Below, one piece after another: positions 27,101-45,515 of a DNA stretch of 64,000 nucleotides. The notes beneath the pieces are model-generated. The model saw nothing but the letters and a program-made list of their open reading frames with translations, was not told the DNA's origin and searched no databases. The DNA is taken from the IMG/VR virus record IMGVR_UViG_3300046057_000051. One strand, 5' to 3'. The stretch is from a virus. Each line of letters begins with the position of its first letter. The stretch's first letter is position 1. The position numbers and the translations under genes were made by a program.

Positions 27101-27221
27101 AGCCACCATCAGCCACGCGCACCGGCCCGAGAGGGCCGCCGTGGGCAACCAGCGAACACACCCACATTCGCATCGCGGCTTTCGACCACCCACCGGCCCC
27201 GAGAGGGGTGTGGCCCCGGCT

Positions 27222-27614
27222 ATGAACGCCGACAGTCTACCCGTCCCGAGCTTCGGGACTGCGACCGACGACGGAACCGTACAAGAGCGGTCCGGCTACC
27301 ACCAGCCCGGTAACAACGGCCCCGCGACCAAGAGCTGTACGTGTGCCCGCACGACCGAGAAGGGCGCCTACCGTGACGTGCGGGTCGAGTACGACGGCGC
27401 GACCGTCCACTTCTACCACCAGTCGCCGGTGGTCGTCGTGGAGGGCCGCACGCGCCGGCTTGACAGTCACGGCTACCGGACCCGGACCACAAAAGACCGC
27501 ATTAACCGCTACCTTCCCGACGGGTACGAGGTGTACCAGGAGGAGTACGAGTGGTACCTGGAGACGCCGAGCGGCGAGCGGGAGTTCACGGACGGCATGA
27601 CCGTCACGGTCTAA
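27222..27614 (+). CDS. Array ORF 1, hypothetical
   Basis: ATG follows the hairpin motif; FYHQSPVV...GYRTRTTKDRINRY. Confidence 0.8.
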   Translation: MNADSLPVPSFGTATDDGTVQERSGYHQPGNNGPATKSCTCARTTEKGAYRDVRVEYDGATVHFYHQSPVVVVEGRTRRLDSHGYRTRTTKDRINRYLPDGYEVYQEEYEWYLETPSGEREFTDGMTVTV

Positions 27615-27664
27615 CCGTCCCCGCAACCCCCCATATCGGCCCCGAGAGGGGCGTGACTCCAGCG

Positions 27665-27838
27665 ATGAGCGCCAACGACTACGAGGACAGCCTCGCATGC
27701 AAACGGTGTAACGAACCCCGACCACCCGGCCCCGAGCTATGCCCGAGGTGCGAGGACCTACAGGCGGCGCGGACGGCCCCCGGAAACCCGGAGCCGGTCA
27801 TGCACCACAACCCGCCGCACGGCAACACGACCCGGTAG
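27665..27838 (+). CDS. Array ORF 2, Zn-finger micro-protein
   Basis: CKRC...CPRC; ATG 8 nt after GTGA. Confidence 0.75.
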   Translation: MSANDYEDSLACKRCNEPRPPGPELCPRCEDLQAARTAPGNPEPVMHHNPPHGNTTR

Positions 27839-27887
27839 CCGGTCGCCGGCTACCACTCCCGGCCCCGAGAGGGGCGTGACTCCGGCT

Positions 27888-28214
27888 ATGAACGCCAACC
27901 CCACCATCGAACTGGCGGAACCGATAGGGCAACTCGCCGGCGACGACGTGGCCGAGGTCCGCGAGAAGTTCGCGGACGTGGCGGCCGCAATGGCCGAGCG
28001 CCACCCGCCGACGAACCGCAGATTGCTCATCGCCACCGCCGATTACTGGAGCGACGCGGCCGGTCCGAACGACCCAATCGTCCAATCCATCCTGTCCTGG
28101 GTGGTGTACCTCTCGCACGACGACATGAGTCAGTTCGACGCCGGCATGACCGTAGACCAACATCAGGCGTTGCGGAAGCGCCTCGGCGAACTCGGTCTCC
28201 GCGACGACGACTGA
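27888..28214 (+). CDS. Array ORF 3, hypothetical
   Basis: ATG 8 nt after GTGA; acidic helical. Confidence 0.8.
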   Translation: MNANPTIELAEPIGQLAGDDVAEVREKFADVAAAMAERHPPTNRRLLIATADYWSDAAGPNDPIVQSILSWVVYLSHDDMSQFDAGMTVDQHQALRKRLGELGLRDDD

Positions 28215-28293
28215 CCGCGCGGGCACGGCGCCCGCGCCTGCCCCGAAAGGGGCGCGACGCCCGCTCCGGCCCCGAGAGGGGCGTGAGACCGCT

Positions 28294-28554
28294 ATGCGCG
28301 ACATACCCTGCGCCAAGTGTGGCGAACCGTACTCCCTGTACGCGCTCCGGCACGACGTGGCCGAGTGGGACGACCAGCCGGACGACGCGGCGGAGAAGTT
28401 CCAGTCGGGCGACGGCTGCCCCACCTGCGAGTGGGGCGACAAAGCCGGCGACGTGTCGGTGTCGCGGTTCAAGGGGGAAACGGAACTGGAGGCCGAACAC
28501 ATGAAGGGCGTCATGCGGGAGTCCGACGAGGACCCGCTGAAGTACCTGCCCTGA
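28294..28554 (+). CDS. Array ORF 4, Zn-finger protein
   Basis: CAKCGEP...CPTCEWG. Confidence 0.8.
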   Translation: MRDIPCAKCGEPYSLYALRHDVAEWDDQPDDAAEKFQSGDGCPTCEWGDKAGDVSVSRFKGETELEAEHMKGVMRESDEDPLKYLP

Positions 28555-28624
28555 CCGGCGCCGGCGCGACCGCCGGACACCGGCGTTAAGCCGGTTCAGC
28601 CCCGAGAGGGGAGTGACCACCGCT

Positions 28625-29167
28625 ATGAGCGACCAACTCGACACGGACCTCGGCGTCCGCTACACGGAGCGGCCCAAACACCTACCCACCGACCACTCGG
28701 AGTTCGACCCGCCGACCGCGTGGGTGAACTATTGGGACATGAACCCCGTCGCACACGGCGGGAAGTACGTCACCTGGACGGGGCGGGCGTGGCGGGTCGT
28801 AGAGGTGGGTCCGCCGTCCATGTGGGATGAGCCGGAACACATAGTCACGCGGTACAGGTTCCGCCCGGCGGACGTATGGGTTGACCCGAGCGACCCGTGG
28901 ACGGACTTCGCGGACGACATGAAGCGGATACTCCGGTCCCTCGGCGACGAGCATCACCTGCCCGTCGCCCCGCCGTTCCTCGGCAGCGTGACGTACTACG
29001 TGGCCGACCTCACGCACTACCGTAGCGTCCGACACGAAACGTTTGAGATAGACGACGGCGACGTGGACGCCTACTGGTCGCACGTCTCCGGCTACGACGT
29101 TGACCCGTCCGAGGTCCAGAACGTGTCCGAGCGCGACCTGCCGGACGACGCAATCAGCGACGACTGA
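28625..29167 (+). CDS. Array ORF 5, paralog of ORF 6
   Basis: Shares DPSDPWTDFADDMKR.LRS.GDEHHLPV with the next ORF. Confidence 0.85.
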   Translation: MSDQLDTDLGVRYTERPKHLPTDHSEFDPPTAWVNYWDMNPVAHGGKYVTWTGRAWRVVEVGPPSMWDEPEHIVTRYRFRPADVWVDPSDPWTDFADDMKRILRSLGDEHHLPVAPPFLGSVTYYVADLTHYRSVRHETFEIDDGDVDAYWSHVSGYDVDPSEVQNVSERDLPDDAISDD

Positions 29168-29212
29168 CCGCCGTAAGCGGTCCGTCGGCCCCGAGAGGGG
29201 CGTGACCGACCG

Positions 29213-29758
29213 ATGCACGACCAACTCGACACCGACCTATCGGCCCGGTACGAGGAACGGCCCCGGTACGCACCCACCGACCACCCGGCGTTCGACCCGC
29301 CGAGCGCGTGGGTGAACGTCTGGTCCATGTATTGTATCGAGAACGGTGGCACGTTCATCACGTGGGACGACGCCGGCTGGGATGTCGTGGAGGTGACGCC
29401 CCCGGACGCGCACGTGGAGCGTGAACACACCGTCGAACGGTACAGGTTGCGCCCATCGGACGTGTGGGCGGACCCGAGCGACCCGTGGACGGACTTCGCG
29501 GACGACATGAAGCGGGTACTCCGGTCCCGGGGCGACGAGCATCACCTACCCGTCTCCCCGCCGTTCCTCGGCCGTGTGACGTTGCATTACATCAGCGGCC
29601 TCACCGACCACCGGACCGTCCAGCGCAAGACGTTCGAGGTAGACGAGGGCGACATAGACGGTTACTGGTCGCACGTCTCCAGCTACGGCGTGGACTCGTC
29701 CGACGTGCAGGGCGTGGCCGCCGACGCACTACCGGACGACGCCATCACCCGCGACTGA
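29213..29758 (+). CDS. Array ORF 6, paralog of ORF 5
   Basis: Full-length similarity to ORF 5. Confidence 0.85.
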   Translation: MHDQLDTDLSARYEERPRYAPTDHPAFDPPSAWVNVWSMYCIENGGTFITWDDAGWDVVEVTPPDAHVEREHTVERYRLRPSDVWADPSDPWTDFADDMKRVLRSRGDEHHLPVSPPFLGRVTLHYISGLTDHRTVQRKTFEVDEGDIDGYWSHVSSYGVDSSDVQGVAADALPDDAITRD

Positions 29759-29802
29759 CCGCCGTAAGCGGTCGCCGCCCCGAGAGGGGCGTGACCACCG
29801 CT

Positions 29803-30096
29803 ATGGCGCGAGACACACGCGGTTACGACGACGCCGTGGACGAATCCGAAAGCACCCTGCGCGACCCCGAGGACTTCAGCCCCCTCGACGTGCGGTGTAT
29901 CGAGCGGGAGGCGCGGATGAGCGGCCGCCGGACCTACACCTACCTCGTGGTGAACCACGACGCGGGCGAGGTACTCCACGAGGGGAGCCCGGTCCGCCAG
30001 ACCGACGTGGCTCCCTCGGTCATGTCGGAGGCCGCCAAGGCGGAAGGAATCGCCGTCGGGTGGCTCCTCGCCCACCCCGACCACGAGTGGCTATAG
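29803..30096 (+). CDS. Array ORF 7, hypothetical
   Basis: ATG 8 nt after GTGA. Confidence 0.75.
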   Translation: MARDTRGYDDAVDESESTLRDPEDFSPLDVRCIEREARMSGRRTYTYLVVNHDAGEVLHEGSPVRQTDVAPSVMSEAAKAEGIAVGWLLAHPDHEWL

Positions 30097-30180
30097 AGCC
30101 ACCCACCCCGCCGGCGCCGCGCCGACGCCGCCCCGGGAGGGGACCCGCCCTTTGGCCCCGAGAGGGGCGTGACCCCGACG

Positions 30181-30399
30181 ATGAATAGCGAACGACGACG
30201 CGGCACGAGACGGCAGAAGCGGCCGCCCGGCCCGCCCGTGCCGCCGGAGTGTCCCGTCTGCGGGGAGTGCCCCCCGGAGACCGAGACCCACGCGACACGC
30301 CGGGACCCGTGCGGATGGGTAGAGGGCGAAATCAACTGCGCCGACTGCGGGCATACGTTGAAGCGGAACGTGTTGCTCCGCGACCCGGACCGCGTGTAG
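30181..30399 (+). CDS. Array ORF 8, CPxCG Zn-finger protein
   Basis: CPVCG...CADCG. Confidence 0.8.
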   Translation: MNSERRRGTRRQKRPPGPPVPPECPVCGECPPETETHATRRDPCGWVEGEINCADCGHTLKRNVLLRDPDRV

Positions 30400-30438
30400 C
30401 GGTCCCTCGGCGTTCTGCCCCGAGAGGGGCGTGACAGC

Positions 30439-30735
30439 ATGACCGAGGACGACGAACGAGCATACCGGGTCACGGTCGCTATTGACGACGGCGAACTCGC
30501 ACGCGGGAACCCCCGTAAGACGAGCGTCGAGGCGGCCAAAACCTACGTTCGGGAACGGATTGACCGGCGGGTCGATATAGTGGACGCCACTCACGACCAC
30601 CGTCCGTCGTTTACCTACGGCGACACGGTGTGGGTCGTCGGCGTGGAGTTATTCTCCCCCGACGACTCCCCGCTCGACGTGACTCCCGACGAACTCATCG
30701 AGGACGTGGAAGAAATCGCAATGCGGCGGTCGTAA
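30439..30735 (+). CDS. Array ORF 9, hypothetical
   Basis: ATG 4 nt after GTGA. Confidence 0.8.
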   Translation: MTEDDERAYRVTVAIDDGELARGNPRKTSVEAAKTYVRERIDRRVDIVDATHDHRPSFTYGDTVWVVGVELFSPDDSPLDVTPDELIEDVEEIAMRRS

Positions 30736-30780
30736 CAACCACGTCCGCCGCGTTCGGCCCCGAGAGGGGCGTGACCACCG

Positions 30781-31017
30781 ATGGACGCAGCCGACCTCGC
30801 CGACGCAATCGGCAACAGCGTGAACTCCGGCATCGACGTGGACGAGTTCAAAGACGGCATCGACAGCGAACACAACACGCTCCAGCGCGAAGCGTACCGG
30901 CAGGTGTTCAAACCGGGCATGAAGGCGCTGGCCGGCACCGAGTACGTGGACTTTCGCAACGAGCGCGAAGTGGAACTCGCCCGCGAGGTATGCGACAAGA
31001 TGGGCTGGACCTACTAA
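30781..31017 (+). CDS. Array ORF 10, hypothetical
   Basis: ATG 6 nt after GTGA. Confidence 0.8.
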   Translation: MDAADLADAIGNSVNSGIDVDEFKDGIDSEHNTLQREAYRQVFKPGMKALAGTEYVDFRNEREVELAREVCDKMGWTY

Positions 31018-31061
31018 CCCACCCATCCGGCGTTCGGCCCCGAGAGGGGCGAGACTCCGGT

Positions 31062-31538
31062 ATGACGGACCCCTACCCCGAAGCCCGACGACGGGCACGA
31101 CTCGACCGAACCGACCACCAGCGAGCGCGACGGGACCGACGCCGCCAACGGCGCGGTCCCTCGACCAGCCGCATCGAGGCGGCGCTGGAGACGGTCGCAG
31201 ACCACGACATCCCGGGCACGCCGGGGGCCGGCGACCTCCGCGTCCTGAAACACGTCCACGACAGCGAGTGGACGGTCGAGACGCGCGAGGTACGGGACTT
31301 CTCAATCACTCGCGGCGACCCACAGCACGGGGCGCTCCGTAGCGACGACCACGTGGGCCGCTACGAGGTGGCGTTCCCGCTGTTCGAGGCCGACCTCCCG
31401 GGCGTCCCCGAGGCGTGTCCCGAGTGCGGCGGCGAGCGCGGCGTCTACACGTACCGCGCCCACCACCACATAGCGGGCAGTGAGCGCATTGACTGCCTTC
31501 GCTGCGAGCAGCAGCTACACAGCGAGGAGTGGGGCTAA
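31062..31538 (+). CDS. Array ORF 11, protein with a C-terminal Zn finger
   Basis: CPECGG...CLRCE; motif variant ends in GAGA. Confidence 0.8.
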   Translation: MTDPYPEARRRARLDRTDHQRARRDRRRQRRGPSTSRIEAALETVADHDIPGTPGAGDLRVLKHVHDSEWTVETREVRDFSITRGDPQHGALRSDDHVGRYEVAFPLFEADLPGVPEACPECGGERGVYTYRAHHHIAGSERIDCLRCEQQLHSEEWG

Positions 31539-31583
31539 CGCCCCGACCCGCCTCGTTCGGCCCCGAGAGGGGCGTGACCACCG

Positions 31584-31793
31584 ATGAACCCGGACAACCC
31601 GAACGCCTCGACGGACATACTGAGAGTCCCCGACGACCCGGAAGCGATGCTGTTCGTCCCGACCGAGATGGACGCCGAACGTGTCGGGCGGCTCCTGGAC
31701 GAACAGATAACGGCCGACGAGTTCGGGACCGGGGACGACGACGTGTCCCTGTGGTCCGAACTGAAGGCCCAACTCAACAAACAACAGGGCTGA
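31584..31793 (+). CDS. Array ORF 12, hypothetical
   Basis: ATG 6 nt after GTGA. Confidence 0.8.
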   Translation: MNPDNPNASTDILRVPDDPEAMLFVPTEMDAERVGRLLDEQITADEFGTGDDDVSLWSELKAQLNKQQG

Positions 31794-31836
31794 CCGACAG
31801 CCCCACACCGTCGCCCCGAGAGGGGCGTGACCACCG

Positions 31837-32238
31837 ATGAACCCCGACTCCTATTCAGACGCCGAACGGCTACTCGTCGCCGGCGCGTCGCCCGAGTTCG
31901 TCACCGTCATGCTGGCGGACCCGTCCGAGTACCCGGGCGTGGACCGACACAGCATCAGGGACCTCGTCCGCAAGCACGACGACCCCGAACGGGTCGCCGA
32001 CCGCGGCGGCGACTTCGCCGGCAACCTGTGGGACGGCACCGTTGCCGAGGCGTTCTTCCACGCCGACGGGAACAACATCAGGCTCCTGCTGGACACCTTC
32101 GGCCCGGCCTACCTGTGGGCCGCCGGCGTGAGCATCGGCGCGGGGCCAGTCCACTTCCGGCGGATACTGTACGAGAAGACCGAGCGGTACCGCCCGGACA
32201 TGCTTGACGAAATCGGCCCGAAGCCGTCCCACGAATAG
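31837..32238 (+). CDS. Array ORF 13, hypothetical
   Basis: ATG 6 nt after GTGA. Confidence 0.8.
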   Translation: MNPDSYSDAERLLVAGASPEFVTVMLADPSEYPGVDRHSIRDLVRKHDDPERVADRGGDFAGNLWDGTVAEAFFHADGNNIRLLLDTFGPAYLWAAGVSIGAGPVHFRRILYEKTERYRPDMLDEIGPKPSHE

Positions 32239-32283
32239 CCCACAACCCACCCGGTATTTGCCCCGAGAGGGGCGTGACGCCCG

Positions 32284-32670
32284 ATGGCAAGGTACGACGG
32301 AACCGACCTACGCGACGGCATCGACAACGAGGAAGCCCTGGGGATGCCGGACGAGCGACTCCCCCCGGGCTGGACGCGGTTCGACCCCGCCGAGGGTGAG
32401 GCCCACGGCGAGGAGGCGTACATGTTCGCCAACGGCCACCAAGTCCTGCTCGGGGAAACCAGCGACGACAACTGGTTCGTCCTGGCGTACCCCGAACACG
32501 GCATGACGGACCTGATGGGCTACGTCCGCCCGCTGGCGGAAGACTCCCCCGAGGCGGCCGCGCCGCCCGCCGGCGACCGGACCCGTGCGCGGGACTTCGC
32601 CCACGGCTACATGGCCGCTGTCGTCTCCTACGAGGCCGACACCCTCGACTACCCGTTGCACGGCCAGTGA
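32284..32670 (+). CDS. Array ORF 14, hypothetical
   Basis: ATG 6 nt after GTGA. Confidence 0.8.
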   Translation: MARYDGTDLRDGIDNEEALGMPDERLPPGWTRFDPAEGEAHGEEAYMFANGHQVLLGETSDDNWFVLAYPEHGMTDLMGYVRPLAEDSPEAAAPPAGDRTRARDFAHGYMAAVVSYEADTLDYPLHGQ

Positions 32671-32724
32671 CCACCGGGGCGGGCTCCCGCCCGCCTCCGG
32701 CCCCGAGAGGGGCATGATACCGTT

Positions 32725-33138
32725 ATGGAGGAGATACCACAACTCCGAGAAGCCGTCGAGCGCGTCGAGGACAGCGACGAGGCGCTCCGCGAGTGGCTCC
32801 GCGACCGACCGGAAGCCGAGATGCTCACCGGCGTCACGAAACCCCGCTCGTATGGCGGGGCCGGCGTCGGGAACATTACGGTGAAGGTCGCCAAACCCGG
32901 CCGGCCGTGCTACTACACCGTCCGTCGTAGCGGGACGCTGTTCGTGTCGAAAACCCACCCGAACAGCCGGGGCAACGGCGTCCCGGCGCCGGAGGCCAAC
33001 GACGACCTGCTCCGGCGCGCCGTCGAATACTACCCCCGGTTCGTCGTCAGGCTCATCGACGAGGTGAACGCGGCGGCGACCGAGTTCGAGGCGGCACTCC
33101 CCGACGAGGCCGTCCCCGAAATGATGCTAACCGAGTAA
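32725..33138 (+). CDS. Array ORF 15, hypothetical
   Basis: ATG 7 nt after the ATGA variant. Confidence 0.8.
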   Translation: MEEIPQLREAVERVEDSDEALREWLRDRPEAEMLTGVTKPRSYGGAGVGNITVKVAKPGRPCYYTVRRSGTLFVSKTHPNSRGNGVPAPEANDDLLRRAVEYYPRFVVRLIDEVNAAATEFEAALPDEAVPEMMLTE

Positions 33139-33199
33139 CACACCACCCTGCCCCCGCCGGCGGGCGGGGCGGGCTCGCCCCGAGAGGGGCGTGACTGCC

Positions 33200-34144
33200 A
33201 TGACAGGCAACCAGACCACAGACGGCAGTACCGACGAACTCCAGCGACTCGTCCGGGCGTTCGCCGACGCCGCGTTCAACGACCCACCCGAGAAACCCAT
33301 CCCGATGGCGACGGACGACGCCGTGGACGTGGTCCGGTCCCAGTTGACCGAGAACACGGGCAGGCACCTCCTGGATTCCGGCAGTGCCTACGGTCGGCAC
33401 TGGGAGGAAAACCAGGAGAACCCCCCGTGGGAGCGCCCCGAGTGGGACGTGGGCAACGGCTACGTCACCCACAACGTGTCCGACTGGATGGAGCGGGCCT
33501 TCGGCCGCGACCGGACGGCGGTCGCGCTGGAAGCCGCGCTGTACGCCTTCGGTCACACCGACGCCCAGAAGCGCAACGGGTGGCTCTCGTCCTGCGAGGC
33601 GTTCCGCGACCTGTTGTTCGACAACACGCTCGACGTGGTTGACCTCCGCGAGTGGGGCGTCCCCGACGAGTTCACCAGGGACGTTCTCTCGGTCCAGAAC
33701 GACATCCACGGGGCCGACCACGGGTTCACGTTCAACACCTACAACGGGGAGTGTCACTCGCTCTCGCAGGTGCTTCAGGGCGTCGTCCTCGGCGGTCCAT
33801 ACGCCGGGTATGGGTTCGTCCAAGTCCATCAGGGCGCGGACGTTCGCGGCGGCTACACCGGCCCGCGGGCGTACACCAGCGCGATGGGCGGCTGGCTCCC
33901 CCACGAGTTAGAGTTCCGGTGTGACCGCTGCGAGTGGGTCGATTACGAGTCCTGTCTCTACGGGAGCGATGAACTGCTCTACCAGCGGAACATCGACCCG
34001 TTCGAGTTACAGGACGAAGGCCTCATCGACGAGGGCGACGACGCCCACCCGGCGCTGGACGCGGCCTACGACGCCGAACACATCGACGGCGCCGTGTTCC
34101 ACAGGTGCGACGACGGCGGCGTCGGGTACTGCGTGTTCCGCTAA
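33200..34144 (+). CDS. Array ORF 16, hypothetical (314 aa)
   Basis: DSGSAYGRHWE, FNTYNGE, VHQGADVRGGYT motifs suggest a conserved mobile-element family; function unknown. Confidence 0.85.
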   Translation: MTGNQTTDGSTDELQRLVRAFADAAFNDPPEKPIPMATDDAVDVVRSQLTENTGRHLLDSGSAYGRHWEENQENPPWERPEWDVGNGYVTHNVSDWMERAFGRDRTAVALEAALYAFGHTDAQKRNGWLSSCEAFRDLLFDNTLDVVDLREWGVPDEFTRDVLSVQNDIHGADHGFTFNTYNGECHSLSQVLQGVVLGGPYAGYGFVQVHQGADVRGGYTGPRAYTSAMGGWLPHELEFRCDRCEWVDYESCLYGSDELLYQRNIDPFELQDEGLIDEGDDAHPALDAAYDAEHIDGAVFHRCDDGGVGYCVFR

Positions 34145-34194
34145 CCACCGGCGGGCGACCGCCGGCCCCCGGCCCCGAGAGGGGCGTGATTCCC

Positions 34195-35733: not shown

Positions 35734-35771
35734 CCCCGGGCCGCCGTCGGCCCCGAGAGGGGCGTGATTCG

Positions 35772-38020: not shown

Positions 38021-38446
38021 ATGAGTTCCGCGCCAGACATGGCGAACGCGAACGAGCTACACAGCACAGTCCTCGCCCGCCTCGACAGCACCGGCGGTGT
38101 CCTGACGGCGCTGCACAACGCGCTGTACGCCGCCGACGAGGCCGGGTTCCACGTCCAGCATGACGAGGACCGCGCCGTGGACCTCGACAACTACCTCGGG
38201 CGGGCGATGGAGGCGGCGGACGACACTGACCCCGACCCGAAGTTGGTGTGTGACCGCGTCGAGTCCGCCCGCCGGCAAGCGACCTATTTCCGAACGGGCC
38301 TCGACGACGACGTGGCGGCGTTCGAGCTACCGGAGTACGTCGATTCCGGCGTGTACGACACGCTCGGGGAGTACGCGCGGTACGTCGAGCAGGACATCCG
38401 TGTCCTCATGCAGTACGCCGAGGCGTGGGCGCACGCGGCCGAATAA
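38021..38446 (+). CDS. Array ORF 25, helical hypothetical protein
   Basis: ATG 5 nt after GTGA. Confidence 0.8.
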   Translation: MSSAPDMANANELHSTVLARLDSTGGVLTALHNALYAADEAGFHVQHDEDRAVDLDNYLGRAMEAADDTDPDPKLVCDRVESARRQATYFRTGLDDDVAAFELPEYVDSGVYDTLGEYARYVEQDIRVLMQYAEAWAHAAE

Positions 38447-38492
38447 CCCCCACGCTCATCCCGGTTCGGCCCCGAGAGGGGCGTGAGACACC

Positions 38493-38867
38493 GTGACGGA
38501 CGCAATCACGCAATCGGAGTACGACGCGGCGGTCGAACCGTTCGTGGAGATGGTTGTCGATGAGGCCGAGGAGATGGTCGAGTCGGGCCATTTCGACTCC
38601 CGGCGGCAGGGCGTCATGGAGATGTGTTCCGAGGAACTCAACTATCACGACTGGTTCGCTCGGAACTACTACGACGGCGCGCTGTACGGCTCCATCGTCG
38701 AACACGCGGACACCGACCCGGCGAGCTATTCTGACTGGCCGGCGCTCATCGAGTCCGACACCCCGGAGGGGACGTTGAAGCGTCTCGCGTTCGTGGTGAT
38801 GGAAGCCGACGTTATGTCGGTGGCTCTCGACCGCGTCGAGGCCGACGCTGACGCCGAGCGCGCGTAG
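38493..38867 (+). CDS. Array ORF 26, hypothetical (GTG start)
   Basis: GTG 6 nt after GTGA. Confidence 0.8.
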   Translation: MTDAITQSEYDAAVEPFVEMVVDEAEEMVESGHFDSRRQGVMEMCSEELNYHDWFARNYYDGALYGSIVEHADTDPASYSDWPALIESDTPEGTLKRLAFVVMEADVMSVALDRVEADADAERA

Positions 38868-38951
38868 CCGGCCCACGGGCCGGCCACACCACGGAGCCGC
38901 ACACACGCGCGCACAGCGGCTCCTGGCAGCCCCGAGAGGGGCGTGGTTCCG

Positions 38952-39359
38952 ATGCAACAGGACAAGCCACCGCTGGAGGACCGTATCGAGGACAGCGACC
39001 TGTCTGCCGAGTACGCGCGGCCGCCGACCGGCGAGTCCGCCAACGGAGCGGACATCTCGGTCGCGCTCCCCGCCCAGTACGGCGATAAACTCACCGTCCA
39101 CTACCCCGACGAGTGCGACGAACCCCACCGGGGCAACCCCGAGGAGTGGCTGTACGGCGGGCTCCGCGGCGAGTCCGTCGTCCTCGTGGCGTGGGACGCC
39201 TACCAGGACAGTCTCGACCGGGCCGACGACGACGAGTTCGTCACGCTGTTCGGGAAAACATGCGAGGGCGTGTTCCGGTTCAACAACCGTATCCGCCGCG
39301 TCGCGGAGACGGTGTGCGTCGAGCGCATCGACAGCCCGGAGTATCTCTCCATCCGATAA
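38952..39359 (+). CDS. Array ORF 27, hypothetical
   Basis: ATG 5 nt after the GTGG variant. Confidence 0.8.
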   Translation: MQQDKPPLEDRIEDSDLSAEYARPPTGESANGADISVALPAQYGDKLTVHYPDECDEPHRGNPEEWLYGGLRGESVVLVAWDAYQDSLDRADDDEFVTLFGKTCEGVFRFNNRIRRVAETVCVERIDSPEYLSIR

Positions 39360-39400
39360 CCAACCCCCGGTTTTCGCCCCGAGAGGGGCGTGACTCCACG

Positions 39401-40135
39401 ATGACAGCCAACACCGCCAACATCGAGGTCGCGGGCTCCGCCGCCGCGAACATCGCCAGGGACCTCCTCAATGGCCTCGGCATCCCGCCGAGCGACATCG
39501 AGGCGGCCGACATCACCGTCGTCGTCAACGGCGACGGCGACACGGAAGTCGCGCTCGTCGCGGACGGCCCGAACGCCGGCGCCATTACCGCCGAGATGTT
39601 CGGTGGCGTCGAGTGGGACGACTACGAGGTCGCGTCCATCGACGCCGACGTGACCGAGCGCGACGAGCCGGCGGAGCCATCGACCGCCGACGACGACACC
39701 AGTTCGAGGCCCGGCAAAAGCGGGTTCCAGCCGCAGGTCACGCCGCTCGCCGGGAAAGTTGACCCGCAGTACGTCGAGTTCCCCGGCGAGCCGCCGGGGC
39801 GTATCCGGGAACACACCCAACTCCACGTCATCGCCGACATCCTCATAAAGTGGTACGCCGATTACGACGCCGATTGGGTCAGCGGCGGCGCGCTCGCCGA
39901 GTATGAGTCGAACCCGCTGTCGGAAACACAGACGCAGAACGGCTCGTCGCGGCTGTTCCGAAACAAGGGACTCGTCGTCCGCCGCCAGCAGCCCGAGGGC
40001 GACGGCCGGAAGTACGAGTACCACCCGACCAAGCAGTTGTCCGAGGAGGCGTCCCGCCTCGGCGAGTATTCGATGCCCGATGTCGAGGAGACGCGCGACA
40101 AACGAACGCCCGACGACGTGGACGACGAACCATAG
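39401..40135 (+). CDS. Array ORF 28, protein with a C-terminal winged-helix-like domain
   Basis: SSRLFRNKGLVVRRQQPEGDGRKYEYHPT resembles a MarR-type wing. Confidence 0.7.
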   Translation: MTANTANIEVAGSAAANIARDLLNGLGIPPSDIEAADITVVVNGDGDTEVALVADGPNAGAITAEMFGGVEWDDYEVASIDADVTERDEPAEPSTADDDTSSRPGKSGFQPQVTPLAGKVDPQYVEFPGEPPGRIREHTQLHVIADILIKWYADYDADWVSGGALAEYESNPLSETQTQNGSSRLFRNKGLVVRRQQPEGDGRKYEYHPTKQLSEEASRLGEYSMPDVEETRDKRTPDDVDDEP

Positions 40136-40180
40136 GGTGGCCCCCACGGGCCACCACGGCCCCGAGAGGGGCGTGAAACG

Positions 40181-40615
40181 ATGGACGAGCCAGACCACGA
40201 ATCCACCATCGAAGCCAGACTCGACGAACTACGCGACAACAGCGGCCAGAGCTACATACTCGCCGGGAGCGCCGCCGAGATACTCCGACCGTTCCGCACC
40301 GACGTGACGCGGGAGTTCGTCGTCGAACACACGCTGTCCGACGCCGATGACGTGGATGTCGAGCCCTCGGACTACAACGGCTTGCTCGCACTCCACGGCG
40401 CCCTGGAAGCCAAACAACGGTCGTCCCGCGAAGCGCGCGGCATCACGAGCGTCCACGCGCACAAGATGCTCGTCACGTACTCGGACGTGTCCGCCATCAT
40501 CGTCGAGGCGCTCGGCGGCGAGCCGAGCGACTACACCGCCGGCGGCCACGGGTTCACGGCCGACGGCCGACACGAGGAGAACGTCGAGGCGATTGTCGAA
40601 CGCCTCGACGAGTAG
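40181..40615 (+). CDS. Array ORF 29, hypothetical
   Basis: ATG 4 nt after GTGA. Confidence 0.8.
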   Translation: MDEPDHESTIEARLDELRDNSGQSYILAGSAAEILRPFRTDVTREFVVEHTLSDADDVDVEPSDYNGLLALHGALEAKQRSSREARGITSVHAHKMLVTYSDVSAIIVEALGGEPSDYTAGGHGFTADGRHEENVEAIVERLDE

Positions 40616-40735
40616 CCCGCAGCGGCGGGCTTCGGCCCCGAAAGGGGCAATCAGGGGTACAGCCAACCAACTACGGGTCACGCCCCTCTTTTCGGTTCGA
40701 GGAGCGCGCCAGCCCCGAGAGGGGCATGACTCCCG

Positions 40736-40870
40736 ATGTACGACGACGACGTTGAAATCATCGAGTGCCGCGAGTGCGGCGCCCAGTTCGACGTAGCGAA
40801 ACAGCGGTATTACGACAATCTCTGTCCACCCTGCAAGGACGAGAACGACCCGGGGGCGCCTGCCGCCTGA
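40736..40870 (+). CDS. Array ORF 30, 44-aa Zn-finger micro-protein
   Basis: MYDDDVEIIECRECGAQFDVAKQRYYDNLCPPCKDENDPGAPAA; below the ORF-track cutoff; follows the motif. Confidence 0.75.
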   Translation: MYDDDVEIIECRECGAQFDVAKQRYYDNLCPPCKDENDPGAPAA

Positions 40871-40914
40871 TAGCCGCCCCCGGATTTTTAGTCCCGAGAG
40901 GGGCAGTGACAGCT

Positions 40915-41226
40915 ATGGACGAGTACGACGACCCAATCCAGTTGGAACTCAGGACCGACCGGGAAGTCGCCGTGTTCATGCACGCGATGGGGCTGGGGTC
41001 GGCGATGCTTATTGACAACAACTTCATCGCCGGCGCCCAGACCGCGTCGAACCTCCAGATACGGCTCGCCACCGCGGCCCCGGAGCGAGCCAAGCGCGCG
41101 CTGGACGACCACGGCGACGGCGGCGTGATGAGCGGTCTCGGCGAAGTGTCGAACGAGGCCGCCGTCGGGCACCTCATCGCGGAGGAGGAGGTAGACCCCG
41201 ACGAGGCGGTCGAAGGGATGCTGTGA
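40915..41226 (+). CDS. Array ORF 31, hypothetical
   Basis: Follows the variant GTCCC-GAGA-GGGGC-AGTGA. Confidence 0.75.
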   Translation: MDEYDDPIQLELRTDREVAVFMHAMGLGSAMLIDNNFIAGAQTASNLQIRLATAAPERAKRALDDHGDGGVMSGLGEVSNEAAVGHLIAEEEVDPDEAVEGML

Positions 41227-41271
41227 CACCCCCCTTTGGCGGTCTCTGCCCCGAGAGGGGCGTGATTGCCG

Positions 41272-41610
41272 ATGGAACGAACGATATACGAGTGCGACTG
41301 GTGTGGCGAACGGTTCGGCGCGAAGAACGACGTTGCTCCCGTCCCGATTCGACGCCGGGTACGTGAGTGGCTCCCGTACCGGGAGTACACGCTCCACTTC
41401 TGCTTCGGGTGTGAGGGCTCGGCGGCAGTGGAACTCAACAACACCGGGTTCAAGCGGTTCCTCGTGAACGAGGGCGACGAGGTCATCGGCTGCGAGTGGA
41501 GCATGCGGGAAATCTACCCGCTCTCGGATGTCCCCGAGGACCGGCTTGCGGACCCGGAGGCACTGGACGCGGCGGTAAACGCGGTCGAGGACGCCCTCAA
41601 TCCCACGTAG
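41272..41610 (+). CDS. Array ORF 32, Zn-finger protein
   Basis: CDWCG...HFCFGC. Confidence 0.8.
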   Translation: MERTIYECDWCGERFGAKNDVAPVPIRRRVREWLPYREYTLHFCFGCEGSAAVELNNTGFKRFLVNEGDEVIGCEWSMREIYPLSDVPEDRLADPEALDAAVNAVEDALNPT

Positions 41611-41656
41611 GACGCCTCGACACCCGGGTTTCGGCCCCGAGAGGGGCGTGATGTTG

Positions 41657-42106
41657 ATGACGGAAGTAACTATTCACAGTGACGAGCGCGTACTGCTCGG
41701 CCCCGACGAGGGCCCGATACTGGCAAGCGAACTCCGCGAGGAACACGCTTGGTACGACGAGCCCGCGTTCGCCGCCACGTACTCGACGGGCCGCGAGTGG
41801 GGGGCCGAGGAGACGGATGATGGCTTCGTCACGGTCCGCACGACGCCGGACCCGACGCTCCACGTCTACCTCGACGACGACGCTGCCTACGTTGCGCTGC
41901 TGGTCGAGAACCGCGACGACATCGTGATGCGGCTGTTCGAGGTCCCGGGCACGTCCGTCATGGATTTCGTGGCGCGGATGACGACGGCAATCGAGGACGG
42001 GTACGACGGTATCGGGAACGTGGAGGTGGCGGTGGCGGACGGCCAGATGGCGCAACTCGGCGACCAGCTACACGGGCAGGTCGAGGACATCCTCGCGGAC
42101 GCATAG
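41657..42106 (+). CDS. Array ORF 33, hypothetical
   Basis: ATG 5 nt after GTGA. Confidence 0.8.
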   Translation: MTEVTIHSDERVLLGPDEGPILASELREEHAWYDEPAFAATYSTGREWGAEETDDGFVTVRTTPDPTLHVYLDDDAAYVALLVENRDDIVMRLFEVPGTSVMDFVARMTTAIEDGYDGIGNVEVAVADGQMAQLGDQLHGQVEDILADA

Positions 42107-42153
42107 GGCGTCCTCGTCCCGTGGGCCTGGCCCCGAGAGGGGCACGATTCCCG

Positions 42154-42426
42154 ATGAACACCGAGATTCCAGTGGATACGCACCACCGCGTCGGCCCGCT
42201 CGTCGATAGGGGCGGGCATGGTCCCGTGACCTGCATCGTCCCCCACCTGTGGGTGTGTCTCGACTGCGGGTACACGGCCGCTTACGAGCGACGGTTCAGT
42301 CATGTGGACTGTGACCGCGCGGAGAACCCCATTAATCAGACGTGGCGTGAGCGTCTCGACAAGTACGTGTTCCCGGATGCGTTCGATGAGCGTGAGGGCG
42401 AGCGCCGCGAGCGCGACTCGCCGTAA
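42154..42426 (+). CDS. Array ORF 34, Cys/His-motif protein
   Basis: HH...CLDCG...C. Confidence 0.75.
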   Translation: MNTEIPVDTHHRVGPLVDRGGHGPVTCIVPHLWVCLDCGYTAAYERRFSHVDCDRAENPINQTWRERLDKYVFPDAFDEREGERRERDSP

Positions 42427-42476
42427 CCCCCTATCGCCCCATTTTAGGGCGCGGGGCGCGTGGGTGGAGGTGAACG

Positions 42477-42797
42477 ATGGTACCGGACGAGACCGACATC
42501 GAGCAGACCGACGAGGAACAGAACCCCACGTTCGGTGTCCCCGGCGTCGAGGTCGTCGATAACGGCCGTATCCGTCTCCCGCCGCGGCAACGCGACCGCT
42601 ACGACATCGAGGAGGACGACGTGGTTGACATCCGCGTCCGGGCGCCCAGCGTGATATTCTGGGCGCTCGACATCGTGGTGGACGGCCGCGGCCGTATCCG
42701 TATCCCGTCGCGGAAACGCGACCTCTACGAAGTCGATGACGGCGACGTAGTGGACATCGACGTGATGATTACCGGCATGACCCACGACGGCGACTAA
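42477..42797 (+). CDS. Tandem AbrB/MazE/SpoVT-family DNA-binding protein (no hairpin motif)
   Basis: Two repeats VDNGRIRLPPRQRDRYDIEEDDVV / VDGRGRIRIPSRKRDLYEVDDGDVV; canonical GGAGGTGA SD. Confidence 0.85.
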   Translation: MVPDETDIEQTDEEQNPTFGVPGVEVVDNGRIRLPPRQRDRYDIEEDDVVDIRVRAPSVIFWALDIVVDGRGRIRIPSRKRDLYEVDDGDVVDIDVMITGMTHDGD

Positions 42798-42869
42798 CCC
42801 CGGCGTGGCCGCCGGCCCCCCAGCCCCGGGAGGGGCACCACCCGCCCCGAGAGGGGACTGTACCCACGA

Positions 42870-44186
42870 ATGACGACCAACACCCCACCATCGACGATGG
42901 ACGGCCTGCTCGCGCTCTCCAAAGGGGAGGCGCTGGAGATAGAGGCGTTGTGCTGGCGTGGCGACCTCTCCATCAAGCGAGTCACCAAACACATGGTCCG
43001 CGTCCTCGCCGACGAGATGACGTGGGACGGCCGCGAGAACAGCCAGTCGCTCCGCGGCGTCTGGTACAGCGGCGTCAAACAAGTGTACCAACACCTGTTC
43101 CCCGAGAAGTGGGCAGACGACCACTACACGGAGCCGCCGTCGCGCCGCTTCTCACAGTCGCTCTCCGAATACACCTCCGAACTGGTGAAGGAGGGCGAAC
43201 TCACGTATCGGGACATCAACGTCGTGGACGACTCCCGCGACCGGGAGATACTCGGCACCGACGCCGTCGAACACGACAAAATCCTGTTCGTGGAGAAGCG
43301 CGCGAAATACCGACAGTTAGCCCCTATCAGCGACGTGCTGGAAGTGTCGCTCGTGTCGGGCGGCGGCTGGCAGGCGACGGCGCTCATCGAGGACCTCGCC
43401 AACGTCCTCGACCCGACCAACACGTACACCATCTTCATCCTCACGGACTTCGACCCCACGGGCTACCGTATCGCCGAGGACTTCCAGTCGCGCGCCGAAA
43501 CCCTCGGGGTGAACGTCGAGGGCGTCGAGCGCATCGGCATCGAGCCCGAACAGGTCACGACGGAAGTCGCCGAGGCCGAACGGTTCGAGGTGCCCGTCGA
43601 GAGCGATTACGACGAACGCTGGCTCGACACCCACGGCATCGAGGACGACCACGACGACCCCCGGTACGGGTTGGAACTGGAAGCCATCGGCGGCCGCGAC
43701 TCTGCCGCCCAGGACTTCCGGCGCGTCGTCGTCGAAGCCCTCGACCCCCATTTGCGGAAGCGGCGTCGGCGGTCGCGGGACCTCAACATCGAGACGGCGA
43801 ACGTCGTCGGCCGCGGCGTGGACGACCTCGTCGATGACATGACCGAGCAGTTGACCGCGGCGCTCAAAGAGTACGCCATCGCCGAGTTGCGCGACCACGA
43901 CGCCGTCGAGCGGTTGACCTACCGTCGCGGGGACGACACCGTGACGGCGGCCGTGGACCTTGCGGAGCGCGAGGGCGGTGACGACGACCGTATCCCCCAC
44001 CCGCTGGCGTGGGGCACCTACTCGTCGGCGGCCATCGACCCGGACACGACGGAGTCGGGCGACATCGTGTCGCCGCGGCCGCCGCGCGACGAACAGGTCC
44101 GCCGCCTCCAGCGGCAGCTTGCGGCAGAGATGGACGACCCCGACGGCGACATCGACGTAACGGACCTGTTGGACCTCGACGTGTAA
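42870..44186 (+). CDS. Topoisomerase VI subunit A/Spo11-like TOPRIM protein
   Basis: LRGVWY (candidate catalytic Tyr region), LFVEKR, SGGG, LTDFDPTG (DxD), VERIGI, LELEAI. Confidence 0.75.
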   Translation: MTTNTPPSTMDGLLALSKGEALEIEALCWRGDLSIKRVTKHMVRVLADEMTWDGRENSQSLRGVWYSGVKQVYQHLFPEKWADDHYTEPPSRRFSQSLSEYTSELVKEGELTYRDINVVDDSRDREILGTDAVEHDKILFVEKRAKYRQLAPISDVLEVSLVSGGGWQATALIEDLANVLDPTNTYTIFILTDFDPTGYRIAEDFQSRAETLGVNVEGVERIGIEPEQVTTEVAEAERFEVPVESDYDERWLDTHGIEDDHDDPRYGLELEAIGGRDSAAQDFRRVVVEALDPHLRKRRRRSRDLNIETANVVGRGVDDLVDDMTEQLTAALKEYAIAELRDHDAVERLTYRRGDDTVTAAVDLAEREGGDDDRIPHPLAWGTYSSAAIDPDTTESGDIVSPRPPRDEQVRRLQRQLAAEMDDPDGDIDVTDLLDLDV

Positions 44187-44294
44187 CGCGCCCACAGTCG
44201 TTTTCCCGCCCCGAGAGGGGCCGACGCTTACTCATACGTGGAGTGACGCGCCCGGTACTGCTTAGTTCTACGGCCCCGAGAGGGGCGTGAGTCG

Positions 44295-44660
44295 ATGGCT
44301 CAGGCACTATTATCGGAAAGCGACGACGCGGTACCGCTTCATCTGGACATCGCCCGTAGCTTCCGGCGGCGGACGACTATCGACAGCGTGCTGACGTTGT
44401 CGTATGTGTCGAACGGCGTGGCGGCGGGGACGCCGACGGCGGGCGTCTATGCCCGGACGATGGGGGATGGGCTCGACGACGCCGCGGTGTTGCTCGTCGA
44501 GGGCCCCGACGTGGAGGAGTCGGCGTACTGGATGCATACCAGGGACATCCAGCCCGTTGCGGAGTTGCTCCTCAGCGACGAGTACGTCGTGACGTACACG
44601 GCGAGTCCGCACGTCGAGCCCGGCGCCTACACGGTCCACGTCACGGTGGACGAGGAGTAG
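44295..44660 (+). CDS. Array ORF 37, hypothetical
   Basis: ATG 4 nt after GTGA. Confidence 0.75.
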   Translation: MAQALLSESDDAVPLHLDIARSFRRRTTIDSVLTLSYVSNGVAAGTPTAGVYARTMGDGLDDAAVLLVEGPDVEESAYWMHTRDIQPVAELLLSDEYVVTYTASPHVEPGAYTVHVTVDEE

Positions 44661-44670
44661 CTGGTGGGCG

Positions 44671-44976
44671 ATGACGAACTTGTTCATCCCGCCGGAGTTA
44701 CTCCCCGACGAGTGGGCGTACAGGGACGCTGACCCGGACGCGGGCGTGACGATGTATCGTGACGAGTCCGGGCAGCGCGAGTTGGTGTGCGTCCGGGAGG
44801 GGTTGAACGAGTACGATGTGGCGCTGGAGGCTACGGGCGGCCACCCGGCGTTCTCGGCGCGCACGGAGTTCTTCGCGGCCGAGGGCGTCCCGTTCCATAC
44901 GGCGGTTGCGGTGGCGGTCGGGATGCTGCATGGGGCGGTGTGGTTCGAGCGGATTCATCTCGACGCCTCCGGGTGA
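44671..44976 (+). CDS. Array ORF 38, hypothetical (no hairpin motif)
   Basis: 10 nt downstream of the previous stop. Confidence 0.7.
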   Translation: MTNLFIPPELLPDEWAYRDADPDAGVTMYRDESGQRELVCVREGLNEYDVALEATGGHPAFSARTEFFAAEGVPFHTAVAVAVGMLHGAVWFERIHLDASG

Positions 44977-45030
44977 CTGCCGGGACGGCCCGGCGGTCGC
45001 CGGGGCTGCCCCGAGAGGGGCGTGGTTCCG

Positions 45031-45447
45031 ATGGAAACCGAAGGACGGTACGACTGTGCGACCTGTGGCGAACCGCTCAACATCGTCGGCATCCTCCGCC
45101 ACGATTGCGACCGCGTCCTGTCGGCGGCGAACATCACACCCGGCGAGCAGGACACGCTGCTGTACGTCGAGACGCGGGTCGTGGAACACGAGGGTGTCCT
45201 GAACCTCTGGCAGATGAACTACGACGACCAGCAGAACCTCAAGTTGTCCGGTGCCGCCGGCATCCTCGACGTGAGCGAGGACCCGAATCCCTACGAGGAC
45301 GAAATGTGCGTCGAGGCGTTCACCGAGCGGGCGTGGGACCTCGCCGGTGAGTCCCGGTGGCTCCGTGCCGCGCGGAACATGGATGGTGACGTGGTGGACG
45401 CGGATGTGCTGGCTGACCGGCTGGGGGTGGCGTCCGTCCCGCCGTAG
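45031..45447 (+). CDS. Array ORF 39, protein with N-terminal Cys/His motif
   Basis: CATCGEP...HDC; last motif-associated ORF. Confidence 0.8.
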   Translation: METEGRYDCATCGEPLNIVGILRHDCDRVLSAANITPGEQDTLLYVETRVVEHEGVLNLWQMNYDDQQNLKLSGAAGILDVSEDPNPYEDEMCVEAFTERAWDLAGESRWLRAARNMDGDVVDADVLADRLGVASVPP

Positions 45448-45515
45448 CTGGATTCCCGTGGTTTGGGGTCGAGAGGCCCGGCGGTCGCGGTAATCCTCGC
45501 GCGTAGTGTGAGCGG

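Follow-up and report, generated by a model that had tools for sequence, protein, structure and literature searches.

The DNA examined here, a stretch of 64,000 nucleotides (nt) registered as IMG/VR virus record IMGVR_UViG_3300046057_000051 and hereafter called the window, carries on its + strand, from position 27196 to position 45447, an array of 39 co-oriented small genes, 37 of which are preceded by one and the same short element. This element, or tag, reads GCCCC-GAGA-GGGGC-GTGA and comprises a stem of 5 base pairs (bp) made of G+C, a GNRA-type loop and a tail. A tyrosine recombinase gene (23581-24480, - strand) diverges from the array and served as the family marker with which relatives were found. 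Between the two lies a GC-rich stretch (24481-27195) whose array-proximal ~1.5 kb (~25.7-27.2 kb) looks non-coding; the stretch may serve as an origin, as an att region or as a leader RNA.

A scan of the window with the 18-mer GCCCCGAGAGGGGCGTGA, allowing up to three mismatches, returned 39 matches, all on the + strand and all within 27196-45025, against an average of 0.15 expected by chance from shuffles. Perfect copies make up 27 of the 39. As many as 36 stand 4-8 nt before an ATG (33 copies) or a GTG (3 copies) that opens an open reading frame (ORF) of 44-438 amino acids (aa). The copies at 33435 and 36734, each with three mismatches, lie inside ORFs and have no gene start after them, and neither does the copy at 28240. 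The 37th tagged gene belongs to unit 31 (40884-41226), in which ATTTTTA (40884-40890) is followed by a variant tag, GTCCCGAGAGGGGC-A-GTGA at 40891-40909, 5 nt before ATG 40915; its hairpin, GTCCC-GAGA-GGGGC (40891-40904), includes a U.G wobble, and this copy fell outside the three-mismatch limit of the scan. The gene itself (40915-41226) encodes 103 aa, and GTG opens three of the 37 tagged genes. The initial annotation, made from the letters of the window, had given the same count of 37 tagged genes in 39, which we recovered exactly, and the same spacing of 4-8 nt between GTGA and the start codon. It had also described the tag as confined to the array, and no copy occurs elsewhere in the window or on the other strand; its mention of ordinary ribosome sites outside the array agrees with the GGAGG-type sites that are frequent before the genes there. 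The short stop-to-start gaps that it reported measure mostly ~40-56 nt, with 16-30 nt between stop codon and motif for most units.

A looser hairpin pattern, CCCCGNNAGGGG, is found in 42 copies in the window, all on the + strand and within 26846-45020. Six of these are orphan hairpins that lack both GTGA and a start codon, with loops (GAAA, GGGA, GGAA or GAGA) that are all of the GNRA type. They comprise TCCCC-GGAA-GGGGC in the non-coding leader (26845-26858), GCCCC-GAAA-GGGGC 29 nt before the unit 4 motif (28240-28253) and again past the unit 29 stop codon (40635-40648), GCCCC-GGGA-GGGGA ahead of the unit 8 motif (30130-30143), GCCCC-GGGA-GGGGC 21 nt before the unit 35 motif (42823-42836), and GCCCC-GAGA-GGGGC 22 nt past the unit 35 stop codon (44208-44221). 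A further + strand hairpin in the leader, GGCCC-GAGA-GGGCC (27124-27137), falls outside the pattern: the second pair of its stem is swapped and the GAGA loop is kept.

The units all lie on the + strand, each running from its motif to the end of its gene. Unit 1 has its motif at 27196-27213, in a GGGGT-GTGG variant with a G.U closing pair, before gene 27222-27614 (130 aa). Units 2, 3 and 4 follow with motifs at 27639-27656, 27862-27879 and 28269-28286 and genes at 27665-27838, 27888-28214 and 28294-28554 (57, 108 and 86 aa). Unit 5 (motif 28599-28616, a GGGGA variant; gene 28625-29167, 180 aa) and unit 6 (motif 29188-29205; gene 29213-29758, 181 aa) are tandem paralogs with 64% identity and one tag each (28625-29758), the sole duplication inside the window array. 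With motif and gene given in the same order, there follow unit 7 (29777-29794; 29803-30096, 97 aa), unit 8 (30155-30172; 30181-30399, 72 aa), whose product has an Arg-rich N-terminus and Cys pairs, unit 9 (30417-30434; 30439-30735, 98 aa), unit 10 (30757-30774; 30781-31017, 78 aa) and unit 11 (31037-31054, with a GAGA tail variant; 31062-31538, 158 aa), to which we return below. Units 12, 13 and 14 carry motifs at 31560-31577, 31813-31830 and 32260-32277 before genes 31584-31793, 31837-32238 and 32284-32670 (69, 133 and 128 aa), and unit 15 has an ATGA tail (32700-32717; 32725-33138, 137 aa). Unit 16 (33177-33194; 33200-34144) encodes 314 aa, unit 17 (34172-34189; 34195-34491, 98 aa) starts with GTG, and unit 18 (34512-34529; 34535-35296) encodes 253 aa.

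The second half of the array continues with units 19, 20 and 21, whose motifs at 35327-35344, 35750-35767 and 36157-36174 precede genes 35350-35733, 35772-36137 and 36181-36609 (127, 121 and 142 aa). Unit 22 (36635-36652; 36658-37197, 179 aa) combines a GTG start with a zinc ribbon. Units 23, 24 and 25 (motifs 37216-37233, 37494-37511 and 37998-38015) hold genes 37240-37470, 37517-37978 and 38021-38446 (76, 153 and 141 aa); unit 26 (38469-38486; 38493-38867, 124 aa) again starts with GTG, and unit 27 (38929-38946; 38952-39359, 135 aa) has a GTGG tail. Unit 28 (39376-39393; 39401-40135, 244 aa), unit 29 (40159-40176; 40181-40615, 144 aa) and unit 30, with an ATGA tail and a gene for just 44 aa (40712-40729; 40736-40870), lead up to unit 31. 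Beyond it lie units 32 (41248-41265; 41272-41610, 112 aa) and 33 (41634-41651; 41657-42106, 149 aa), unit 34 with an ACGA tail (42130-42147; 42154-42426, 90 aa), unit 35, whose motif ends in a degenerate GGGGA-CTGT (42844-42861; 42870-44186, 438 aa), unit 36 (44273-44290; 44295-44660, 121 aa) and the last one, unit 37, with a GTGG tail (45008-45025; 45031-45447, 138 aa).

Two + strand genes of the array are untagged. One of them (42477-42797, 106 aa), in the interval 42441-42797, has ATTTTA at 42441-42446 and, in place of the tag, a perfect canonical GGAGGTGA 3 nt before its ATG; its product is a SpoVT/AbrB-MazE-like small DNA-binding protein. A contig from a sister sample has the 68 nt preceding this gene swapped for 67 other letters. 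The other untagged gene (44671-44976, 101 aa) begins 10 nt after the preceding stop codon.

The DNA of the window occurs in halite-metagenome runs of one study. The array encodes acidic proteins, a haloarchaeal trait, and almost without exception they are ORFans; most had no match in Pfam or PHROG. The flanking genes include a primase-helicase-like gene, a subtilase, a glycosyltransferase and the tyrosine recombinase, with a ParA-like ATPase and a polyprenyl synthase seen in relatives, and the flank also encodes a relative of a protein of unknown function from a Halorubrum/Haloarcula tailed virus. Capsid, portal or terminase genes were not recognised in the window. Neither near and distant DNA searches with the array nor integrase protein searches turned up anything similar in phage and plasmid collections, and searches of IMG/VR with two array proteins returned only two unrelated low-GC phages. 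On all this evidence we call the window an uncultured haloarchaeal integrase-bearing mobile element, either a virus or a plasmid. Among other flanking products are a PAPS-reductase-like protein (444-1283), the primase-helicase-like protein of 1036 aa (8900-12010) and a clamp-loader/AAA-like protein (48904-49809). The interval 45639-45788, just past the array, was considered as an intron-bearing tRNA-Gln and was detected by neither ARAGORN nor Rfam at its gathering score; over the whole window ARAGORN found nothing and Rfam gave no family match at that score.

Metagenomes hold 33 homologs of the recombinase, and the contexts of four were fetched: L060 (93% identity), L062 (60%), L064 (57%) and L065 (56%). 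All four are laid out like the window, with the recombinase, a ~2 kb stretch and a divergent row of small genes. Any ORFs called in the ~2 kb stretch are few and small, and its non-coding leader abuts the array; genes in the rows are 42-50 nt apart, and a hairpin stands before nearly every start. Three further arrays (L069-L071) were reached through one array protein, and the identical motif also stands ahead of unrelated genes in three short contigs from metagenomes (L036, L042 and L045). Over nine elements, namely the window and eight metagenomic relatives with its layout, the hairpin is present at 164 of 181 array gene starts, and in 156 of these 164 it ends 8-12 nt before the start codon. 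Motif and placement are thus conserved across the nine elements. In the relatives, copies are confined to the arrays or array leaders and to the array strand; neither the opposite strand nor 10-13 kb of DNA outside the arrays contains the motif. The leaders hold hairpins in which the GAGA loop is kept and the stems covary (GGCGC..GCGCC in L062, GGGCT..AGCCC in L065 and GGCCC..GGGCC in the window). A tandem pair similar to units 5 and 6 exists in L060, and homologs of the unit 1 protein, which has a weak Kyano_Gp96-like match, occur in L062, L064 and L065. The subtilase genes of L060 (13722-16619) and L062 (12970-15873) contain inteins with LAGLIDADG homing-endonuclease domains, as does the polyprenyl synthase gene of L062 (18784-20900); the subtilase of the window (19472-21049) is intein-free.

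The initial annotation had suggested a motif scan of the whole element and of databases, since a motif common genome-wide would have spoken against a special role. Within the elements the repeat is confined to the arrays. Among 185,579 species genomes the exact 18-mer turned up only as scattered single matches, never in a haloarchaeon, and IMG/VR gave one match; these read as chance hits, and the 18-mer is repeated neither in any of the species genomes nor in IMG/VR. Matches to the motif in Nannocystis turned out to be tRNA-like T-arm repeats.

The relatives allow us to ask whether the stem is conserved as a structure. Instances were chosen by gene start and not by pairing, which gave 820 stem-pair cells over the nine elements. 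While 761 cells are unchanged, 22 carry two-sided changes that restore a Watson-Crick pair, so that stems such as GCCCG..CGGGC, GTCCC..GGGAC, GACCC..GGGTC, ACCCC..GGGGT, TCCCC..GGGGA and CGCCC..GGGCG occur. Single changes that give G.U account for 21 cells and a two-sided change that gives G.U for one. Only 15 cells are mismatched, 14 of them in the closing (outermost) pair; the four inner pairs show 8 compensated cells, 7 wobbles and 1 mismatch. Single changes are strongly asymmetric, with 21 from C to T against 1 from G to A. As A exceeds T on the coding strand, mutation bias does not explain this asymmetry, and since C-to-U changes preserve pairing only when the + strand folds, selection appears to act on the sense RNA. 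Judged by these substitutions, the repeat behaves as a base-paired hairpin under selection on the sense strand; selection on single-stranded DNA of the + strand is the less likely form of this. Like the stem, the loop is nearly invariant in sequence. Among four-base loops at gene starts in the nine elements, GAGA occurs 130 times, GAAA 4 times, AAGC twice and GAAG once, and five-base loops (GAGAC, GAGAU, GAGUA and GAAAU) are found in L062, L064 and L065.

Boundaries of units and natural junctions between DNA segments coincide with the motif. Relatives share a minority of their array genes, at 30-81% amino-acid identity and in different order; for example, window genes 1, 13, 11, 16, 18, 24, 21 and 19 correspond to L064 genes 1, 5, 7, 9, 10, 12, 13 and 15, and even L060, with its recombinase 93% identical, differs from the window in gene order. 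The window and L064 have DNA homology (80-84%) that sets in with the gene 16 motif, at its first base, and stops at the final base of the following motif (33177-34189). The homology resumes at the gene 18 motif, unit 17 (34190-34510) being absent in L064, an indel between two tags. Over all pairs of elements, the start of an alignment falls no more than 7 nt from a motif start in 15 of 20 cases, and its end no more than 5 nt from a motif end in 10 of 20. The one-gene-per-unit modularity and the exchange through the repeat that had been suggested from the window are both borne out by this comparison of ORF order, in which the order differs and the tag is kept, and by variants within the same study.

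These variants are contigs from sister samples, 93-95% identical to the window, whose joints fall at tags. Joint 37993->38465, which occurs in two samples and is flanked by 255 and 104 nt, has 25 nt in common at the junction and removes unit 25 exactly, and joint 31832->32284 skips unit 13 in a sister-sample contig. Joint 37233->35750 connects a motif end to an earlier motif start and places unit 20 after the motif that ends at 37233. Both ends lie at or within 15 nt of tags in joints 29182->36154, 30178->30755 and 27181->29185, and joint 29217->28299 has equal offsets of 12-13 nt after two tags. In total, about 10 of the 15 joints listed have an end within 15 nt of a tag, where tags with 15 nt on each side make up ~10% of the array length. 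Because the shared 25 nt are shorter than the assembly word, we infer that collapse during assembly is an improbable source of these joints. Homologous recombination between the direct repeats is consistent with the data; a site-specific reaction is less likely.

The part of the tag next to the gene resembles a ribosome-binding site. For pairing we used a generic haloarchaeal 16S rRNA 3' end, GGAUCACCUCCU, which we take to stand for that of the host. With it, 10 of 12 positions pair in the 3' arm and tail (GGGGC-GUGA and then C(C/U)ACC or UUCC), and only 2% of random 13-mers from the array do as well. The predicted duplex reaches -10.8 kcal/mol, compared with -14.7 for the extended Shine-Dalgarno sequence GGAGGUGA, both values being computed with this generic end, which may not be that of the host. 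The hairpin itself is predicted at -10 kcal/mol, so that site and mask would be about equally strong. The distance of 4-8 nt from GTGA to the start codon fits the haloarchaeal GGAGGUGA. On these grounds the tail probably functions as a Shine-Dalgarno site. In Haloferax volcanii, distal genes in operons show an enrichment of 6-8 nt matches to GGAGGUGA at a distance of 3-7 nt upstream of their starts, where the sequence is thought to serve re-initiation (PMC3986360).

Signals for transcription are scarce within the array. Hexamers made of A/T alone are missing from 27100-40883 and occur in the array only at 40884, 42331, 42441 and 44308; those at 40884 and 42441 stand immediately before unit 31 and the untagged gene at 42477. 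The leader at 25.7-27.2 kb, very G+C-rich and with many hairpins, contains the majority of the AT-rich boxes in this region of the window, including ATATAA (27094-27099), ~27 nt before the leader hairpin. This is the sole strong TATA-like box before the array, and variants in two sister samples have T>C at 27095 and 27097. Arrays of the relatives are likewise poor in A/T boxes, and their leaders hold several. The scarcity of boxes is circumstantial evidence that favours long read-through transcripts, such as have been seen in HF2 (PMC8707807), and the array may be transcribed polycistronically. The initial annotation had pictured modular units that are read from one promoter and co-regulated and/or exchanged: modularity and exchange stood, an RNA-level role, by which co-regulation would be possible, agrees with the covariation and the strand-specific wobbles, and the putative single promoter is suggested solely by the scarcity of AT boxes. 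A bacterial promoter and terminator scan of the window was uninformative for archaea.

Two further features accompany the tags. Ahead of the hairpin, at -7 to -1 (~-31 to -25 counted from the start codon), T is over-represented; this patch reads TTCG in the window, TTTTCCA in L062 and L060, and TTTTATC in L045, and in the window it is only TT in about half of the copies, where no BRE-like signal was seen. Many units also have a variable G+C hairpin directly after the stop codon, together with a short T-run, so a leaky terminator may precede each tag. An identical short hairpin, GACCGCCGTAAGCGGTC, follows the stop codons of three genes (29168-29187, 29759-29776 and 37198-37215), and for window gene 16 and its homolog in L064, the single pair compared, the post-stop hairpin moves with the upstream gene. 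We also considered the hairpin as the capped 5' end of an mRNA from a promoter ~27 nt upstream of it, and rejected this idea since A/T enrichment was absent at that position. A second idea, that the T patch is mainly a partner of the tail UGA, is weakly supported, the TCG-UGA pairing being possible in the window and weak in the relatives.

We propose, with a probability of roughly 0.6, that the tag is an intercistronic RNA start module that also serves as a junction for the shuffling of single genes. The repeat would be a cis-acting element of the sense transcript, in which GGGGC-GUGA-YYACC, made up of 3' arm and tail, would mimic the extended Shine-Dalgarno sequence of haloarchaea, GGAGGUGA(UCC), 4-8 nt before the start. 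Each gene would obtain from this standard module the same context-independent ribosome entry, part-masked by the hairpin, and the hairpin may in addition be a fixed 5' structure after RNA processing, or a protein-binding site. With the same 18-25 bp before every gene, the DNA copies would double as recombination junctions at which single-gene units are deleted, inserted and reordered, and with tags as junctions the array would act as a platform for cassettes within a family of integrase-bearing elements of haloarchaea.

Several points weigh against this proposal. Shine-Dalgarno motifs in the 5' untranslated regions of H. volcanii do not drive initiation, and a perfect one of 8 nt represses (PMC3986360). 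Pairing of the tail was calculated with the generic 16S end and not with that of the host's own species. The joints come from metagenome contigs at 90-95% likeness, some with short sides. The TTWT TATA box of leaderless haloarchaeal mRNAs lies ~28 nt before the start codon (PMC4983044), which is the position of the T patch, so internal promoters are possible. None of the listed runs that contain the window DNA is an RNA run. Finally, the invariance of the 5' arm and of the loop sequence, and not of pairing alone, goes beyond the requirements of a ribosome site, which suggests that a specific partner binds there.

Such a partner is central to the rival explanation that fares best, which we regard as possible, if doubtful. 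The arginine-rich peptide of the lambda N protein reads the GNRA-type hairpin boxB, and in a similar manner an element-encoded Arg-rich protein might control the whole row through its GNRA-type hairpins, either as an antiterminator that acts past the short T-runs or as a repressor or activator of translation; a Shine-Dalgarno role of the tail could coexist with such control. The candidate is the product of unit 11. Its family is the sole array gene found in all five recombinase-anchored elements (window 31062-31538; L064:5192-5668; L060:3428-3865; L065:2370-2810; L062:4030-4452). The proteins, of ~155 aa, consist of an Arg-rich N-terminal helix of ~30 residues, a GDPxHGxxRSDDH core and a C-terminal CPxC...CxxC zinc ribbon, and the Arg-rich N-terminus stands out in an otherwise acidic proteome. 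Some 20 homolog clusters exist in the protein collection, and three contigs fetched from among them all place the gene inside tagged arrays. Besides this co-occurrence, the near-invariant sequence of stem and loop and the variable hairpins with short T-runs after stop codons would suit such control, and the five-base loops of relatives, such as GAGUA, fit the GNR(N)A pattern of lambda boxB.

On the opposite side, the co-occurrence is partly circular, the three extra contigs having been found through the protein, and 37 nut-like sites in one operon would be unprecedented. The unit 11 protein, modelled with a pLDDT of 82, has no match in Pfam, PHROG, NCBIfam, the PDB or AlphaFold clusters and no homology to N, and its zinc ribbon bears only an insignificant resemblance to ribbons of the RPA12/TFIIS type. 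We consider the protein a candidate trans-acting factor that may read the hairpin, a lead rather than a finding. In its boldest and equally tentative form, one Arg-rich zinc-ribbon protein would read every hairpin and switch the whole 18-kb row on or off, while new genes plug in by recombination; if true, this would be a self-contained 'plug-and-play' platform for expression and gene capture, undescribed in archaea.

It is unlikely that the tag is instead a promoter module at the DNA level, with the T patch as the TATA box for a leaderless start and the palindrome as the operator of one regulator. The patch stands at a suitable place and is clearest in L062, L060, L045 and at 40884, and there are precedents in HF2, whose intergenic repeats are proven promoters (PMC8707807), and in HGTV-1, which has a TATA box and inverted repeat before most ORFs of one arm (PMC3950731). 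However, compensatory changes argue against a duplex operator for a dimeric protein, which would not select them, and together with the asymmetry of C-to-U and G-to-A changes they point to pairing in the sense strand. The frequent reduction of the window patch to TT, with no BRE-like signal, also speaks against a promoter, as do the three GTG starts and a tail that mimics a Shine-Dalgarno site at the usual spacing, which leaderless mRNAs do not need.

Far less probable is an integron-like system, in which the adjacent tyrosine recombinase would cut folded single-strand hairpins as it would attC sites, capturing and excising cassettes. The resemblance is one of layout: in all integrase-anchored relatives, as in integrons, the integrase diverges, across a leader, from a one-way row of mostly promoterless single-gene units with a foldable repeat whose stem pairing is conserved, and units are gained, lost and reordered with junctions in the repeat. 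The recombinase, however, is a generic tyrosine recombinase that scores 24.7 bits against the integron integrase model TIGR02249 (cut-off 265) and is not IntI. Sites of the attC type are imperfect inverted repeats of 57-141 bp with GTTRRRY at the 3' cassette end, whereas the tag is a hairpin of 14 nt plus GTGA, far smaller than attC or an 11-6-11 core, without GTTRRRY, and placed 5' of the gene with a tail like a translation signal; the identity of 25 nt at joints fits plain homologous recombination. Least probable of all is a host-derived REP-like (REP/BIME) palindrome that colonised the intergenic regions of the element: the tag is a short G+C palindrome, intergenic and in one orientation, but the 18-mer is in none of the haloarchaeal genomes searched and not repeated in any species genome or in IMG/VR, which argues against a repeat of the host, and confinement to arrays with a fixed distance to start codons is no trait of REP sequences. 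REP/BIME elements are spread in many copies over a host chromosome, often together with a RAYT transposase.

The preferred reading, an intercistronic start module that doubles as a shuffling junction, can be set against systems already described. The analogues listed initially missed the closest ones, namely the inverted-repeat motif with TATA boxes of HGTV-1 and the PeSLs of T4-type phages (PMC3950731, PMC2839356). HGTV-1 is likewise a haloarchaeal virus with such a motif before most ORFs of one arm (PMC3950731), a motif likened to T4 PeSLs for which roles in regulation and gene shuffling were proposed (Sencilo et al. 2013, as related in PMC3950731). Its repeats, read in NC_021328, are 68-125 nt long and AT-rich, with clear TATA boxes, an 8-bp stem and gaps of 120-140 nt, whereas the tag described here is 18-25 nt long, G+C-rich and without TATA, abuts the start, ends in a Shine-Dalgarno-like tail and has no sequence similarity to them. 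In the HGTV-1 region itself (L068:34000-49856; NC_021328 128-143.8 kb) we counted at least 21 repeats of 68-125 nt, one before each small minus-strand ORF, in which two TATA-like boxes flank the 8-bp stem CTCCTCGTGCCACGAGGAG.

T4-type PeSLs are repeated cassettes between small ORFans in hyperplastic regions, where they act as points of homologous exchange for single-gene indels and swaps (PMC2839356, PMC4122927). The arrays agree with them in that near-identical short repeats flank small variable genes and mark the end points of indels and replacements. They differ in that PeSLs are composites of a bacterial terminator and promoter that make each gene its own transcription unit (PMC2839356, PMC4122927), while the tag is an RNA hairpin with a ribosome-site-like tail and no recognisable promoter; within the arrays A/T hexamers are scarce, and what is seen is the short T patch and the variable post-stop hairpins. 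The start-associated sequences (SAS) of cluster K mycobacteriophages share more of the placement: they are asymmetric repeats of 13 bp, 3-7 bp before the starts of non-structural genes of different families, in one orientation, with a Shine-Dalgarno core accompanied by conserved positions that are unable to pair with rRNA, a preference for ATG and absence from the host (PMC3203893). Placement, orientation, Shine-Dalgarno-like core and, in the haloarchaeal species genomes searched, absence all recur here, as an analogy without sequence relation. The SAS have no hairpin, the inverted repeats of the ESAS being separate arms of 17 bp, and they tag only part of the genes, with 93 sites over five genomes (PMC3203893); unlike the tag, SAS are not known to act as recombination junctions. 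The repeats of HF2/HF1 are conserved intergenic repeats of a haloarchaeal virus, kept across the genus, but they are of 58 bp and 29 bp, AT-rich and few in copies, and form no hairpins at start codons (PMC8707807).

Conserved hairpins in polycistronic early transcripts of viruses, read by an arginine-rich protein or a nuclease, are known from the lambda nut/boxB sites and the RNase III sites of T7. Those number one or two, or five, per genome and not one per gene, are not fused to a ribosome site and are not recombination junctions. The string of the motif itself is absent from the searchable literature. We conclude that the tag belongs to an undescribed family of haloarchaeal elements and that its most likely function is that of an intercistronic translation-start module, possibly regulated by a protein. 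Placed before ~90% of ~180 unrelated small genes in nine elements, it is a clean natural example of a standardised expression tag and bears on the way in which ribosomes are recruited to the internal genes of archaeal operons. With it come a candidate pair of hairpin and arginine-rich protein and an insulated start module ready for use in the genetic engineering of haloarchaea. Compared with the systems above, it extends the idea behind PeSLs and start-associated sequences, with an RNA hairpin and what looks like a mimic of the ribosome site in place of the pair of promoter and terminator.

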